64,000 bases of DNA from Candidatus Nomurabacteria bacterium (GCA_023267215.1 JAHFNS010000001.1:22043-86042); one strand, 5' to 3'. Counted from the first letter of the stretch, positions 1 through 5,014 are shown. Program-made: numbers and translations. The notes: a model not told the origin generated them from the letters alone.

Positions 1-4
1 TATT

Positions 5-1564
5 TTGAAGTCTGAAGGTATTCACACAAGTATAGCCGAGAAATTCAAAGGTGTACCAGAAGATGTTATGTCTTATATGAAAGATCTGTCTATTAAGGCA
101 TCCAGTGAATTTGCAAAAGCTCAAGGTTTAGATAGAGAGTTGCAAAAACTTAAATCTAAACCTGAAGCTGAGGCTTTGTTGGTAAATAAAACTGCAGAAG
201 AAAATTCTGAAGAATTTGGGATTGTTAATTTTAAATCTGATTTTGTGTCCAACAAAAAAGAAGTTTCTTTTGTAATGGCAAAATATTTTGTTAGTAAATA
301 TCATATTAAAACAATTGGTCAAAAAATTCGTGATATTTATATATATGAAAATGGTGTTTATGTATTAGGTCAAAATATAATAACGTCTGAAATTCAATTA
401 ATACTTGAAAAAAATGCTGACAGTAAATGCAAAAACCATATCCTAGAAATGATTAAGGATTTAACCTTAACAAATAGAGAAGATTTTAAGGTGGACAAAA
501 ATTTGATCAACTTAAATAACGGAATCTTGAATATAGAAACTGAAGAATTAATCCCTCATAGTCCAGAATATTTATTTTTTACCAAAATACCCATCAATTA
601 CAATAAAGATGCCCAATGTCCTATAATTCAAAGATTCTTAAATGAAATACTACCAGAAGAGCATGTAAAAATAGTTTTTGAATGGTTTGGGTACTGTCTT
701 TACAGGTCTTATTTTATTAAAAAAGCCATTATATTTGTTGGTGAAAGAGATACTGGAAAATCTACTCTTATAAAATTATTTGTAAGGTTAATTGGTGTTG
801 AAAATACCTCGGTGGTATCTTTACAAAAAATATCTTCTGATAAATTTGCTTCGTCTAATTTATATAATAAACATATAAATGTTTATGATGATCTTGAAGC
901 TAAGGATGTGAATGATAATGGTATGTTTAAAATAGCTACTGGTGATGGAATAATAACTGGTGAAAAAAAGTTTAATGAACAATTTCAATTTCAGAATTAT
1001 GCAAAATTAACTTTTGCTTGTAATAAAATCCCGGAAGTAAAAGATATTAATGATCCAGCATATTTTAGTCGATGGATTATTATACCGTTTACAGCACGAA
1101 TAGAAAAAGTAGATAAATCTCTTAGCGACAAAATTAATACACCAGAAGAATTATCTGGCTTATTAAACATGGCTATTCTTGGTCTATCTGAGATCTTAGC
1201 AAAACAAGATTTTAGTTATAACAAGACGCCAGATGAAATAAAAATAGAAATGTTGCTTTCTGGATCTACAATAGCTAATTTTGCATATGAATGCCTTGAG
1301 GAGGATATTGGTTCATGGGTTAGTAAGGATGATATGTATGAAGAATATTCAAAATATGCTCAATCTAATAACTTACCAGTATTTGATAAAACAATGTTAG
1401 GCAGGAAACTTCCTGATCATAGTGGATATATTATCCATGGAACAAAACTAATAGGCAAAAAACAAGTTCAAGGCTGGAAAAATGTAAAAATTAAAGGAAA
1501 AAAAGAAACTTCTGACCAAGAGGGATATGAGGGTGATTTATCAATGTTTAATACAAATAATTAA
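5..1564 (+). CDS. Phage/plasmid primase, P4-family C-terminal NTPase (D5-like), 5'-truncated by the window edge.
   Basis: Walker A motif VGERDTGKSTL followed by DDLE (Walker B-like). The ORF is open at the window start. Confidence 0.55.
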   Translation: MKSEGIHTSIAEKFKGVPEDVMSYMKDLSIKASSEFAKAQGLDRELQKLKSKPEAEALLVNKTAEENSEEFGIVNFKSDFVSNKKEVSFVMAKYFVSKYHIKTIGQKIRDIYIYENGVYVLGQNIITSEIQLILEKNADSKCKNHILEMIKDLTLTNREDFKVDKNLINLNNGILNIETEELIPHSPEYLFFTKIPINYNKDAQCPIIQRFLNEILPEEHVKIVFEWFGYCLYRSYFIKKAIIFVGERDTGKSTLIKLFVRLIGVENTSVVSLQKISSDKFASSNLYNKHINVYDDLEAKDVNDNGMFKIATGDGIITGEKKFNEQFQFQNYAKLTFACNKIPEVKDINDPAYFSRWIIIPFTARIEKVDKSLSDKINTPEELSGLLNMAILGLSEILAKQDFSYNKTPDEIKIEMLLSGSTIANFAYECLEEDIGSWVSKDDMYEEYSKYAQSNNLPVFDKTMLGRKLPDHSGYIIHGTKLIGKKQVQGWKNVKIKGKKETSDQEGYEGDLSMFNTNN

Positions 1565-1693
1565 TTATATGAATATAAAATTTCTAATATATGACTTTAA
1601 ATTTACTATCTTATCTCTCTTTTGGAAAATAAAAAAATGAAAAAAGATGAAATACCCCCTTTTAAGGGTTCATTAATTTAAAAAGTAAAACAT

Positions 1694-2005
1694 ATGGAAA
1701 CAACTACTAAAACTACTAAAACTCCGAAAGCAAAGCAAAAATGGGGAAGATTCAAGTTTCCTTCAAGGCCAGAAGTGTACGAAAAATTCTCAAAATGGAT
1801 GGCCTATCCACCGTCAACTAGAGATCCAAAAACTCAAGGAGAATTTGCAAAATTGAATGAAGTTTCCCCTGACACATTGAGCGACTATAAAAAGAGACCA
1901 GAATTTTGGAAACTTGTAGCAGATAATAAGCAAAAACTACAATGGGAAATTGAAAGCAACCAATTATTGGATCGGGCTTTTAAGGATATGGAAAAAGAAA
2001 GTTAA
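1694..2005 (+). CDS. Hypothetical protein (mobile-element cargo)
   Basis: 103-aa ORF co-oriented with the primase and recombinase. No recognisable motif. Confidence 0.3.
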   Translation: METTTKTTKTPKAKQKWGRFKFPSRPEVYEKFSKWMAYPPSTRDPKTQGEFAKLNEVSPDTLSDYKKRPEFWKLVADNKQKLQWEIESNQLLDRAFKDMEKES

Positions 2006-2018
2006 TTAAAAACATTCA

Positions 2019-2210
2019 ATGCTGATCCAAGACATAACAAAAGAAAAAGTACGAATTAGACGGCCTAAAAGGCTAATAGTACCAACTTTGTCTTTTCATA
2101 TGGTTGAGGGAGCATCAGAAGGGGAGATTCAGCGAAGATTAGACAGCGCTTTTAATATTCTTTTTACAGAAGTTTTTAAAAATAACAAGGGTGTGGATAA
2201 ACCCATTTGA
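2019..2210 (+). CDS. Hypothetical small protein
   Basis: 63-aa ORF within the element. Its end overlaps the next ORF by 4 nt (ATGA-type coupling). Confidence 0.2.
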   Translation: MLIQDITKEKVRIRRPKRLIVPTLSFHMVEGASEGEIQRRLDSAFNILFTEVFKNNKGVDKPI

Positions 2211-2425
2211 CAATTATAGACAACTTCGTATATACTTTATTTATGGAATTTTTAACACGAAAAGAAGTAGCAAAATATTTTAGGGTTCACGAAAGAACCG
2301 TTGATCGCTGGATTGAAAGCGGTGTTTTAAAGAGCTATAAACTTGGAGATGGTAGAACATCACTTTTACGAATACCAAAATCTGAAATTAAAAAGTTTTT
2401 AGATAAAAGTAAAAATAAAAAATGA
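2207..2425 (+). CDS. Helix-turn-helix DNA-binding protein, excisionase (Xis)/MerR-like
   Basis: The segment TRKEVAKYFRVHERTVDRWIESGVLKSYKLG is a typical excisionase-family HTH. It sits immediately upstream of the recombinase and overlaps it by 4 nt. Confidence 0.55.
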   Translation: MTIIDNFVYTLFMEFLTRKEVAKYFRVHERTVDRWIESGVLKSYKLGDGRTSLLRIPKSEIKKFLDKSKNKK

Positions 2426-4077
2426 TAGAAGAAATTAAAAAACAAAATAAACTGATAGCAGTTTATGGAAGAGTCTCAACTTCAAACCAAGAAAATGAAG
2501 GCACTATTGAAACTCAACTTTCGGCCGTAAATCAATTTGCTGAAAAGAGTGGTTTTACTATTGTTCAAAAATATATTGATAACGGGTGGAGTGGCGATTC
2601 ACTTGCTCGTCCGGCCCTAGATCAGATGCGTGGAGATGCGAAAAAGAAAATCTGGGATGCGGTTTTAATCTATGACCCTGATCGTCTGGCCCGCCGATAT
2701 TCTTATCAAGAATTAGTAATGGATGAGTTAAAAGAAGCGGGCGTTGATGTGCTTTTTGTTACTATTCCGGAAGCTAAAAATGATGAAGATAAAATAATGT
2801 ATGGAATGAGAGGTTTATTTTCTCAATATGAAAGAATGAAAATAGCTGAACGATTTAGGCTTGGCAAGGTTCGCAAGGCAAGAGAAGGGCATATTATCGT
2901 GAGCGAGGCGCCTTATGGCTATACCTTTATATTAAAGAAGGGAAAAAGAGGGGACGCGGATTTTCTTCAAGGCCATTATGTGATTAATGAATACGAGGCG
3001 CAGATAGTTAAAAATATATTTTCTTGGGTAGACGATGAAGGATTGAGACTAAGAGGGATTGTTAAAAAACTTCAAGAACTTGGTATTCCTCCTCGTAAAA
3101 GTAAAAGAGGCGTTTGGAATACAAGCACCTTGAGTACTCTGTTAAGAAATAGAACTTATATTGGCGAAGGACACTATGGAGCGTCCTATGCCACTGTGCC
3201 AGTGAATCCAATTAAAAAAGAAGGTTACAGGAAAATTAAAAAAACTAGCCGAAGAATGAAACCAGAAAATGAATGGATCATAATAAAAACACCTAAAATT
3301 TTGGATAAAGATTTATTTGATAGAGTTGGGCAAAAGTTAAAAACAAATTTTCTATTGTCTTCTAGAAACACTAAGAATGAATATCTTTTGGCTGGTAAGA
3401 TTTGGTGTAATTGTGGTAAAAGGCGAGCCGGCGAGGGTCCACAAAGAGGAAAGCATTTATACTATCGCTGTACTGATCGAATTAAAAGTTTTCCTTTAGA
3501 ACATAAATGTAAAGAGAAGGGTTTAAATGCAAAGATATTAGATCCCCTTGTTTGGCAAGGACTTGTGAATCTTATGAGTTCTCCGAATCTATTGGTTAAA
3601 CAAATGGAAAGCTGGTTTAGTAGCCAGAATAAAGGAACCAGTACTTCAATAATAAATATTAAGGAAACAAAAAAGGAAATTGTGAAGCTAGAAGATCAAG
3701 TGAGTCGTTACGCCAAAGCTTATGGAGTTGGAACAATTAATCTTGATCAGCTTAAAGAATATACAAACCCTATTAAAGAAAGTATATCTTTATTTAATAA
3801 TCAGATAACTAAGGCAGAATCAGAGAGCGGACAAACATACGAGGCATTATCACCGAAATTAAATGAGATAGAAAACCTTGCGAAAGCATCAGAAGGACTC
3901 CGTAACTTGAAATTTGAGGCAAAAAAGGCGATAGTTAGAGATATTATAGATAGAGTGGTCGGAACAAGAGAAAATTTACAAGTTTATGGATATATTCCAA
4001 TAGTATCAAATATCAATGTCTTCTCTTTCAATCGGAATTGTGGGGTTGCCAAATGTCGGGAAATCAACGCTATTTAA
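2422..4077 (+). CDS. Large serine recombinase (integrase)
   Basis: N-terminal resolvase catalytic domain (AVYGRVSTSNQ with the catalytic Ser, then DNGWSGDSLARP), recombinase domain, Cys-rich zinc ribbon (CNCGKR...YYRCTD) and C-terminal coiled coil. GC content is higher than flanking genes. Confidence 0.85.
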   Translation: MIEEIKKQNKLIAVYGRVSTSNQENEGTIETQLSAVNQFAEKSGFTIVQKYIDNGWSGDSLARPALDQMRGDAKKKIWDAVLIYDPDRLARRYSYQELVMDELKEAGVDVLFVTIPEAKNDEDKIMYGMRGLFSQYERMKIAERFRLGKVRKAREGHIIVSEAPYGYTFILKKGKRGDADFLQGHYVINEYEAQIVKNIFSWVDDEGLRLRGIVKKLQELGIPPRKSKRGVWNTSTLSTLLRNRTYIGEGHYGASYATVPVNPIKKEGYRKIKKTSRRMKPENEWIIIKTPKILDKDLFDRVGQKLKTNFLLSSRNTKNEYLLAGKIWCNCGKRRAGEGPQRGKHLYYRCTDRIKSFPLEHKCKEKGLNAKILDPLVWQGLVNLMSSPNLLVKQMESWFSSQNKGTSTSIINIKETKKEIVKLEDQVSRYAKAYGVGTINLDQLKEYTNPIKESISLFNNQITKAESESGQTYEALSPKLNEIENLAKASEGLRNLKFEAKKAIVRDIIDRVVGTRENLQVYGYIPIVSNINVFSFNRNCGVAKCREINAI

Positions 4078-5014
4078 TGCGCTGACCAAAAAGAGCGTAC
4101 CGGCGGAAAATTATCCTTTTTGTACTATTGATCCATCAGTAGGTATCGTGCCTGTGCCAGATGAAAGAGTGCAAAAACTTTCAGATTTTTCAAAATCTAA
4201 AAAAACCATTCCGGCTGTTATAGAATTTGTGGATATAGCAGGACTTGTAGCTGGAGCATCAAAGGGAGAAGGTTTAGGAAATAAATTTCTGACTAATATA
4301 CGTGAAGTAGATGCTATCGCACATGTCGTGCGTACTTTCGAAGACAATTCTGTCATTCATGTTGCAAACAAAGTAGATCCAATGCAAGACATTGGAGTTA
4401 TAAATCTAGAACTCGTCTTGGCTGATTTTGAAACCATTACGAAAAGAATGGGAACCTTGGGGAAAGATCTAAAGAAGGGAGACAAAGAGGCTATTCTCGA
4501 AGAAGCTATTTTGAAAAAGTTAGCAAAGGTTTTTGAAGAAGGGAAAATGGCAACTGAAGCAAATTTAAATGATGATGAAAGATTTAAAATAAAATCTTTA
4601 AATTTGCTCACCTTGAAACCAATGCTTTATGTTTTGAATGTTTCAGAGGCGAACGAAAATATGGAAGTAGAGTTACCGAAAGGAAGTTTGTCAGTAAAGG
4701 TAGATCCAGTGTTTGAAAAAGGTTTTGATGAATTGATAAAACAAAGTTACACCCTTTTAGGTTTGGAGACTTTTCTTACTACAGGAGAAGATGAGACTCG
4801 CGCTTGGACTATAAAGATTGGTTCTACAGCACCTGTCGCAGGTATGGCTATACATACAGATTTCAAAGATAAATTTATACGGGCAGAAGTGATAGGCTGG
4901 GAGAAATTATTAGAAGCTGGTTCGAGAGCAAAGGCAAAAGAAAAAGGCTGGGTTAGAACAGAAGGGAAAGAGTATATTGTAAAAGACGGTGACGTTATAG
5001 AATTTTTGATATAA
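4016..5014 (+). CDS. ychF: Ribosome-binding ATPase YchF
   Basis: G1 motif GIVGLPNVGKSTLFNALT near the N-terminus, a G-domain and a C-terminal TGS-like region. Confidence 0.85.
   Translation: MSSLSIGIVGLPNVGKSTLFNALTKKSVPAENYPFCTIDPSVGIVPVPDERVQKLSDFSKSKKTIPAVIEFVDIAGLVAGASKGEGLGNKFLTNIREVDAIAHVVRTFEDNSVIHVANKVDPMQDIGVINLELVLADFETITKRMGTLGKDLKKGDKEAILEEAILKKLAKVFEEGKMATEANLNDDERFKIKSLNLLTLKPMLYVLNVSEANENMEVELPKGSLSVKVDPVFEKGFDELIKQSYTLLGLETFLTTGEDETRAWTIKIGSTAPVAGMAIHTDFKDKFIRAEVIGWEKLLEAGSRAKAKEKGWVRTEGKEYIVKDGDVIEFLI

Follow-up and report, generated by a model that had tools for sequence, protein, structure and literature searches.

We analysed a 64,000-nt stretch of DNA from a Candidatus Nomurabacteria bacterium (GCA_023267215.1 JAHFNS010000001.1:22043-86042; hereafter the window, by which all positions are given), which opens with the right-hand part of an integrative element whose large serine recombinase (LSR) gene runs into the 5' end of the conserved host gene ychF. 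We propose that the attachment site of this element, attP, lies inside its own recombinase gene and that integration rebuilds the start of ychF, an explanation to which, taken as a whole, we give a probability of roughly 0.85. A first-pass annotation of the region, made from the sequence alone, had laid out a primase, small open reading frames (ORFs), a helix-turn-helix (HTH) gene, a recombinase running to 4077 and ychF starting at 4016; the ORF map and Pfam searches confirmed this layout, with the following features:

1..1564, + strand: D5/P4-alpha-type primase-helicase gene (ORF 5-1564 in the window; Pfam DUF5906 1.5e-18, D5_N 1.5e-15, Pox_D5 1e-4)
1694..2005, + strand: ORF of 103 aa, with a 67% identical ORF in the free element L083
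2019..2210, + strand: ORF of 63 aa, with a 44% identical ORF in L185
2207..2236, + strand: promoter candidate TTGACA-18-TATACT, sigma-70-like (11/12 matches), upstream of the HTH-recombinase(-ychF) gene string
2243..2425, + strand: gene for a small DNA-binding protein, HTH_17 (excisionase/MerR-like; ORF from 2207; Pfam HTH_17 1.9e-12)
2422..4077, + strand: LSR gene, prophage form, 551 aa (Pfam Resolvase 1.1e-30, Recombinase 1.3e-18, Zn_ribbon_recom 3.3e-6)
4010..4030, + strand: P arm of attR, coding for recombinase residues ...NINVFSFN; left half-site of attP, with the replacement ychF start in another frame
4016..5014, + strand: ychF, chimeric but intact, 332 aa (Pfam MMR_HSR1 3.6e-22, YchF-GTPase_C 1.2e-31)
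4031..4038, + strand: common core ATCGGAAT, the sole sequence common to attL and attR
4039..4065, + strand: B' arm of attR, host ychF codons for VGLPNVGKS (P-loop); the well-conserved half of the target site (attB consensus of 44 loci)

The primase-helicase gene is cut by the start of the window: the full gene (541 aa) begins 62 nt to the left of position 1, at position 7307 of contig L001. This contig, found by exact-protein look-up together with a 27.6-kb ENA contig of the same gene order, is 100% identical to window 1-4135 and reaches 7,368 nt further left. The two small ORFs, 1694-2005 and 2019-2210, matched nothing in Pfam or PADLOC, and the earlier remark that no function could be recognised there stands. 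The stop codon of the HTH gene overlaps the start of the recombinase gene, and the recombinase stop (4075-4077) lies 62 nt beyond the ychF ATG (4016), in another frame. An HTH gene also lies directly upstream of the recombinase gene in L182/L183, L185, L135 and L096, and the HTH_17 protein is a candidate directionality factor or regulator. Its gene is likely to start at ATG 2243 (L002 calls a protein of 60 aa) rather than at TTG 2207; the listed TTG start falls on the -35 box of the strongest promoter-like match in the region.

The protein encoded at 2422-4077 is a large serine recombinase, as judged by its Pfam domains and its fold. Its catalytic domain (PF00239, 1.1e-30, residues 12-157), in which R17-V18-S19 is invariant in 30 homologues, matches that of TP901-1 integrase at 5e-15, and it is followed by PF07508 (1.3e-18) and PF13408 (3.3e-6), with C329, C331, C350 and C363 invariant. 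Long paired helices span residues 408-465 of the AlphaFold2 model of a long-tail family member, which gave full-length Foldseek matches to the SPbeta, phiC31 and Bxb1 integrases (E 3e-19 to 5e-16) and to the LI integrase. Such an enzyme is predicted to carry out attP x attB recombination, with a directionality factor for excision. More than 1,100 homologues were recovered at E <= 1e-20, the top 120 of which are 56-100% identical, and most of the sources named for these 120 are Patescibacteria. A scan of IMG/VR with the recombinase alignment found relatives of at most 28% identity, and the best identity in curated phage and plasmid databases was 27-31%.

Both ends of the element can be read in L001. 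The right junction, attR, is at L001 11399-11406 (window 4031-4038), and the left one, attL, which was found by translating the left end of the contig, is at 189-196, giving an element of 11,210 bp from core to core. In attL, a small host gene and the ychF promoter region are followed by ATGTCATTAAGT, the core ATCGGAAT and an open tail of 44 codons in the recombinase frame; the DNA of this junction runs TTTTTGCTAATATCCTAAGT ATG TCA TTA AGT ATC GGA AT and then switches to GGAGTGAACACACCACGACAT, which in the recombinase frame reads GVNTPRHSINKSIPFMFTVKIPSPLQRGVDYGFISPKRLVVNRL*. When the arms are swapped, the rebuilt attB encodes MSLSIGIVGLPNVGKS, with the native start MSLSIGIVG as in uninterrupted relatives, and the rebuilt attP completes a recombinase of 583 aa, the last 44 residues of which are located at attL; attP therefore lies inside the recombinase gene. 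On the chromosome, the core falls in ychF codons 6-8 (Ile-Gly-Ile). Positions 4016-4030, the ychF ATG and four codons (Ser-Ser-Leu-Ser), are element-derived, the Ile codon at 4031-4033 belongs to the common core, and the DNA is that of the host from 4039 on. The 551-aa prophage recombinase consists of 539 element-encoded residues plus 12 (CGVAKCREINAI) read from the out-of-frame P-loop codons of ychF, its last 12 codons and stop occupying 4039-4077, and its TAA stop is assembled from the ychF Phe-Asn codons TTT-AAT. The sequence shows that an integrative element of 11,210 bp has entered a Patescibacteria (Nomurabacteria/Paceibacterota-like) chromosome and that window 1-4038 covers its right 4 kb; we consider these structural claims on the site and the element highly probable.

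The first-pass annotation had placed the crossover at or within the 5' end of ychF and had supposed that the element supplies or reconstitutes the ychF start; both ideas were borne out, and a second junction, which it had proposed to look for upstream, was found 11.2 kb away. Its view that about 20 recombinase codons come from the host holds as to their origin, but not as to their number, which is 12 plus the stop. What it overlooked is the chief feature, the longer and conserved C-terminus that the free recombinase has and that integration takes away. It had also proposed to look for a direct repeat matching 3990..4080. No such repeat exists: blastn-short on L001 found nothing longer than 15 nt (with mismatch), leaving the 8-bp core as the sole repeat, and the lack of a long one is expected since the enzyme is a serine integrase. 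Independent assemblies (the ends of L001, at window -7368 and 4135, and the start of the ENA contig) break about 100-380 nt from the two junctions, which may reflect a mixed population, with empty sites or circles, in those samples.

According to the mechanism we propose, the LSR would bring about recombination between attP, inside the 3' end of the gene that encodes it, and an attB made up of the ychF codons Ile-Gly-Ile and their flanks. In the free circular element, the recombinase would have 583 aa, the final 44 of them (GVNTPRH...SIPFMFTVKIPSPLQRGVDYGF...) encoded past the crossover. Integration leaves the DNA coding for this tail at attL, 11.2 kb away, and fuses the recombinase gene to ychF. 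Because the last codons before the crossover carry, in the other frame, an ATG and four codons, ychF stays intact. The prophage form of the enzyme would still have to be capable of excision.

Uninterrupted sites are the rule among reference genomes. We screened the 6 kb upstream of ychF in 80 species-representative loci, and 79 had no recombinase gene there. The exception, L015, is an integrated copy (L015:1-225), which the first screen missed because the contig begins inside the 3' end of the recombinase gene (...ELQVCGYIPITIEENVSFIPKHRY). At the closest locus, the empty site of a Candidatus Nomurabacteria metagenome-assembled genome with a YchF 87% identical to that of the window, ychF has an ordinary intergenic region and a short native start; an exact-sequence look-up of the window YchF itself gave no record. 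The host gene found to the left of attL lies about 40-300 nt from ychF in at least eight uninterrupted genomes, so that a comparison suggested by the first-pass annotation, with relatives lacking the element, bore out its interpretation: there, the small upstream gene directly adjoins ychF.

The anatomy of the attachment sites is that of a serine integrase, attP and attB being short and imperfectly symmetric with only the 8-bp core in common. Across 11 attP sites, the highest-scoring dyad axis separates the two G of the core (0.52 vs about 0.33-0.38 at other axes tested), and with its outer motifs ATGTC (-21 to -17) and GACAT (+24 to +28) the site spans about 50 bp. The crossover dinucleotide is most likely GG (4034-4035), with which the Gly codon of Ile-Gly-Ile begins; it is non-palindromic and, in that codon position, invariant. 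The right arm of attB, which codes for VGLPNVGKS, hardly varies among 44 empty Patescibacteria sites. The left arm is poorly conserved as DNA, and the P arm of the element mimics the coding content of attB, not its sequence. The attB right-arm motif CCAAAT is 5 bp nearer the centre than CGACAT in attP, which matches the register shift between attB and attP expected for the zinc-ribbon domains of LSRs, where it has been described (phiC31 paper).

The same arrangement recurs throughout the family, in two states. The top 120 homologues have a C-terminus in common (...LQVYGYIPI.SNINVFT.NR(N/H)), after which they fall into two classes: about 92 end in C[RGW].[AT]K[CR].E..A[FI], which is out-of-frame ychF sequence (with read-through variants where the host Phe codon is TTC, not TTT), and about 24 end in a long tail, G.NT.RH...(I/L)PF.F.I..PPPL..G.DYGF. 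Thirty-five integrated loci, 30-100% identical over the C-terminal part of the recombinase, could be read through the junction, their cores being placed by a frame-aware finder. In all 35, the ychF ATG lies inside the recombinase ORF, 6-21 nt to the left of the core and followed by an intact P-loop, and all 35 keep an ATG-initiated ychF ORF with GxPNxGKS; the overlap between the two genes is therefore not due to chance. We also curated 13 long-tail loci from the metagenome scan and further look-ups (four of them are one element, and L103 was excluded as a false 'free' call). None of the 13 has ychF nearby, and every one carries a pre-formed pseudo-ychF start in its P arm, in the other frame (MSSLSIGME* and similar). 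In two further long-tail loci, L102 and L110, no pseudo-ychF start was found. L102 (L102:1900-2162) reads AAG GTC where other long-tail loci read AAT GTC, and its P arm therefore lacks an in-frame ATG with which to restart ychF after integration.

Circularity could be shown for two long-tail elements, neither with ychF nearby. P0038 lies on four independent 15.2-15.3-kb contigs, each a circular permutation of the others, and terminal overlaps were found in L084 (127 nt) and in the 12.0-kb L083 (77 nt). The two forms interleave: for each long-tail protein there is a ychF-fused relative that is 61-89% identical to it. Taken together, the circular forms, the pseudo-starts and this interleaving indicate that the two classes are the episomal and integrated states of the same lineages, and that both states of this recombinase family occur in nature.

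Remains of past integration are seen elsewhere. L008:5650-6060 is a fossil attR, in which what is left of a recombinase gene of the family, a decayed 3' fragment interrupted by a stop and a frameshift (...SLQVYGALNLNEINVFLQTKYRH), runs into an intact ychF start, MSSCKLSIGIVG; here, in a genome otherwise without the element, the element-derived 5' end of ychF has outlived the element. A fossil attL at L035:4040-4230 reads ATG AAA ATC GGA AC and then continues in the recombinase frame (...STIRHFSNHNSEKGIPFEFTIKLPPPQYERAIV...); the present ychF (5998) is found about 1.9 kb downstream of it, beyond unrelated genes. In L182 (10606-11427; also L183 and L184), a host of a 91%-identical recombinase, the ychF product has 273 aa vs 332 aa in the window, which suggests an internal deletion or truncation of YchF in the L182/L183/L184 lineage.

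What integration removes from the recombinase is a conserved tail. The Ile-Pro-Phe that opens the tail motif IPFxFxI..PPP is kept in 10 of the 11 tails printed, from lineages only 55-71% identical overall, while its third codon positions vary freely, the Pro codon occurring in all four variants. Conservation through synonymous changes, far outside the 25-bp half-site, points to selection on the protein sequence of the tail. AlphaFold2 modelling of a long-tail member (mean predicted local distance difference test score, pLDDT, 71) placed a disordered linker at residues 526-544 before a predicted beta-strand at 547-555 (pLDDT about 76). In phiC31 integrase, acidic residues at the extreme C-terminus are part of the surface contacted by the directionality factor (phiC31 paper), and an effect of the tail on directionality control is therefore plausible by analogy. 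Loss of the conserved tail would, as with the IntP and IntX forms of Mx8 integrase, change the activity or regulation of the recombinase, for example through lower integrative activity or an altered dependence on the directionality factor. We rate the chance that the tail swap has a functional consequence at a little under even. More speculative, and on balance unlikely, is the idea that this remodelling constitutes a state switch, in which a C-terminal strand present only in the episome tunes synapsis or directionality. The strand would then, for instance, be needed for attP x attB recombination or mask the directionality-factor site, and the truncated prophage enzyme would differ in directionality or stability. 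Promoters would be swapped in parallel, with ychF under the control of the element and the defence cargo under that of the host ychF promoter.

Expression of the rebuilt ychF can be considered in the same terms. The HTH gene, the recombinase gene and ychF share one strand, on which no terminator-like site separates them, and they lie behind the promoter candidate at 2207-2236; ychF is thus probably transcribed from the element, by way of the HTH and recombinase genes. At attL, the native ychF promoter has been displaced and would point into the cargo genes for an AlbA_2-ATPase and AbiU2. Native ychF loci have a TATATT-like box 6-8 nt before the ATG.

A number of observations weigh against the explanation we favour. 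A complete attL/attR pair was readable in L001 only; in the 34 other integrated loci and in L182/L183/L185, no attL was found within the available (10-kb) flanks, a regular-expression match in L185 having been a false positive, and this exact element was not recovered in its free form. Two loci, L125 (a 1.5-Mb contig, GC 0.46) and L095 (64 kb, GC 0.52), have an intact long tail and no ychF nearby; their recombinase genes (L125:9989-11764 and L095:9998-11689), whose products share 41-49% identity with the query, include a pseudo-ychF start, and the two loci are not explained by the model of an episome and a prophage. As for expression, promoter-like sites in the region are no commoner than in shuffled sequences, 2207-2236 being the best match and a candidate only, and the new ychF ATG has no evident Shine-Dalgarno sequence ahead of it. 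With regard to the tail, the region beyond the strand is mostly below pLDDT 50, prophage forms (536-590 aa) end in tails whose sequence and length are essentially random, and truncation may simply make no difference to the enzyme; a functional role for the tail would rest on its conservation and on a medium-confidence model.

The points on the tail lead to the alternative that survives best, in which the anatomy is the same and the tail swap functionally neutral. The C-terminal extension would be dispensable, the free and prophage enzymes alike, and attP would overlap the 3' end of the recombinase gene merely because the P arm must carry the replacement ychF start. The variable out-of-frame tails of the prophage forms and the low confidence at which most of the free tail is modelled speak for this alternative; residues 590-605 of phiC31 integrase are without density in cryo-EM maps (phiC31 paper), and integrated copies retain intact, conserved recombinase genes. 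It accounts less well for a motif (RH...IPFxFxI..PPP(L..GxDYGF)) that is predicted to include a beta-strand and persists across such divergent lineages, with Ile-Pro-Phe kept by synonymous codons well outside the ~25-bp P' half-site; and in Mx8 an analogous swap changes the properties of the integrase (PMC6070905). We regard neutrality as a serious contender, with about one chance in three of being correct.

A further question concerns the history of the recombinase gene within the element. To the right of attL, on the strand of the displaced ychF promoter, are genes for a 479-aa AlbA_2/HATPase_c_4 (Schlafen/AlbA_2-ATPase) protein and a HEPN AbiU2 protein; next inward comes a reverse-strand block of unknown genes, followed by the primase-helicase gene, the two small ORFs, the HTH gene and the recombinase gene. 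None of 10 element proteins matched a capsid, portal, terminase or tail protein in PHROGs, and 7 of the 10 had no match there at all; with no virion genes recognised, the element looks plasmid-like, though structural proteins of a novel kind may have escaped this search. Replication genes differ between family members (D5-type, AAA_25, or Prim-Pol with AAA_25), and so does the cargo on the P' side: an AlbA_2-ATPase and HEPN AbiU2 in L001 (581-2865), a KAP NTPase and a 2,020-aa RHS/YD-repeat protein in L084-L087, and a restriction-modification pair, DpnII endonuclease and N6/N4 methyltransferase, in L182 (3841-5506). Besides the LSR, and the HTH gene in some elements, there is almost no protein similarity between family members. 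As the LSR is the sole common module, the LSR-attP module must move between otherwise unrelated small replicons.

The first-pass annotation had described the recombinase gene as richer in GC than everything around it and had taken this to suggest different evolutionary histories within the element. The GC of the LSR gene (0.356; 0.269 at third codon positions, GC3) does exceed that of the primase (0.287), HTH (0.283) and major facilitator superfamily (0.265) genes and of the whole element (0.299). It lies, however, within the range of host genes such as ychF (0.371; GC3 0.279), leuS (0.346; GC3 0.265), a methyltransferase gene (0.372) and orf188 (0.349), and among 1.6-kb windows of the host (mean 0.326, standard deviation 0.022) about 10% are at least as GC-rich. 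We rejected GC as a sign of a foreign origin of the recombinase gene, because its GC and GC3 match those of ychF and leuS and because GC in this AT-rich genome tracks protein conservation. A separate origin shown by base composition is on balance unlikely. The idea of different histories holds in another form: the mosaicism is real, as the sharing of the LSR, with or without the adjacent HTH gene, by unrelated elements attests, but GC is no evidence for it.

It is very improbable that the long-tail genes are sister recombinases that integrate elsewhere and keep their own C-terminus, the attL-like sequence to the left of the window then being unrelated to excision or integration. The long-tail genes of L125 and L095, inside long contigs without ychF nearby, would fit such a history. 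Others are found on 12-15-kb contigs that are circularly permuted and overlap at their ends, long-tail and ychF-fused genes are interleaved and reach 89% identity to each other, all 13 curated loci carry the pseudo-ychF start and the core, and the tail missing from the element in the window lies exactly at its own attL. Least tenable of all, with a negligible probability, is that no mobile element exists and that the overlap, which does recur in many metagenomic contigs, is a conserved chromosomal order, perhaps with a domesticated recombinase: this is refuted by the empty sites, where a host gene abuts ychF, and by the intact attL and attR around 11.2 kb of primase, defence-like and unknown genes, and the gene content beside the recombinase differs wholly between loci.

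The closest precedent for an integrative element that embeds attP in its integrase gene is the myxophage Mx8, where attP lies in the integrase coding sequence and integration gives intP a new 3' end (intX) and the enzyme altered properties (Tojo 1996; Magrini 1999; PMC6070905). As in Mx8, attP is inside the int ORF here and the C-terminus is changed (from 583 to 551 aa). Mx8 Int, however, is a tyrosine recombinase whose attB is elsewhere on the chromosome, whereas our element has an LSR, an 8-bp core and the 5' coding end of ychF as its target, and the same segment also rebuilds the start of the target gene. The element works like Mx8 only in having attP inside int and, with serine rather than tyrosine chemistry, is not a member of that group. 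Its LSR has the domain architecture and fold of the phiC31, Bxb1, SPbeta SprA, Listeria A118/LI and TP901-1 integrases, and the element resembles these characterised systems in its short, imperfectly symmetric att sites with a minimal core, in having attP beside int and in inserting into a protein-coding gene, which is common among them. To our knowledge, attP lies outside the int ORF in the characterised large serine integrases, and their insertion usually disrupts the target gene (comK, sigK, spsM, groEL1). Unlike them, the present element has attP within the ORF, remodels its enzyme and rebuilds its target by dual coding, not through a long identical core.

Other systems share single features with this one. 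In the mycobacteriophages BPs, Brujita and Charlie, attP lies in the repressor gene and integration removes an ssrA-like degradation tag (PMC4557955, PMC9934374). This integration-dependent immunity likewise has attP in one of the element's own genes and costs the encoded protein its C-terminus; there, a repressor is split by a tyrosine integrase, whereas here it is the serine recombinase itself that is split and no repressor spans the site. In integrases of the SSV1 type (fuselloviruses), attP is also within the int gene. These are archaeal tyrosine recombinases, whose int is split into two inactive parts at a tRNA gene, whereas here only 44 codons are exchanged and the ORF stays open. The D5/P4-alpha-type primase-helicase, the small HTH protein, the integrase at one end and the defence-like cargo recall P4-like satellites, which differ in their tyrosine integrases at tRNA genes, the present recombinase being of the serine type with ychF as target, and in their capsid-redirection genes; Pfam and PHROGs searches detected no sid/psu/delta-like genes in the element. 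In the open-access literature we found neither a serine-integrase attP inside int nor a Patescibacteria element at ychF, and a large LSR survey does not discuss attP inside an ORF. What is new here is a serine-integrase element with attP embedded in the integrase gene, so that a single crossover reshapes the enzyme and, with it, the 5' end of a host gene that is conserved.

How directionality is controlled is the central question about the mechanism of serine integrases, which are major genome-engineering tools, and a natural clade of hundreds in which integration rewrites the C-terminus of the enzyme offers a directly testable case. Within about 25 bp, one segment holds recombinase codons, a predicted binding site for the recombinase and the replacement start of a conserved host gene, and these overlapping codes show how an integrase with almost no att homology can enter a gene without destroying it. 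Should the switch described above prove real, nature would offer, in a phylum without genetic tools, a serine integrase that has its activity set by the product of its own recombination. Few mobile elements have been characterised in Patescibacteria, where the fossil junctions in reference genomes indicate that such elements have repeatedly overwritten the 5' end of ychF. Small, able to replicate and to integrate, with variable defence and toxin cargo beside attP and an attB conserved across the phylum, these elements are candidate chassis for genetic tools in these bacteria.

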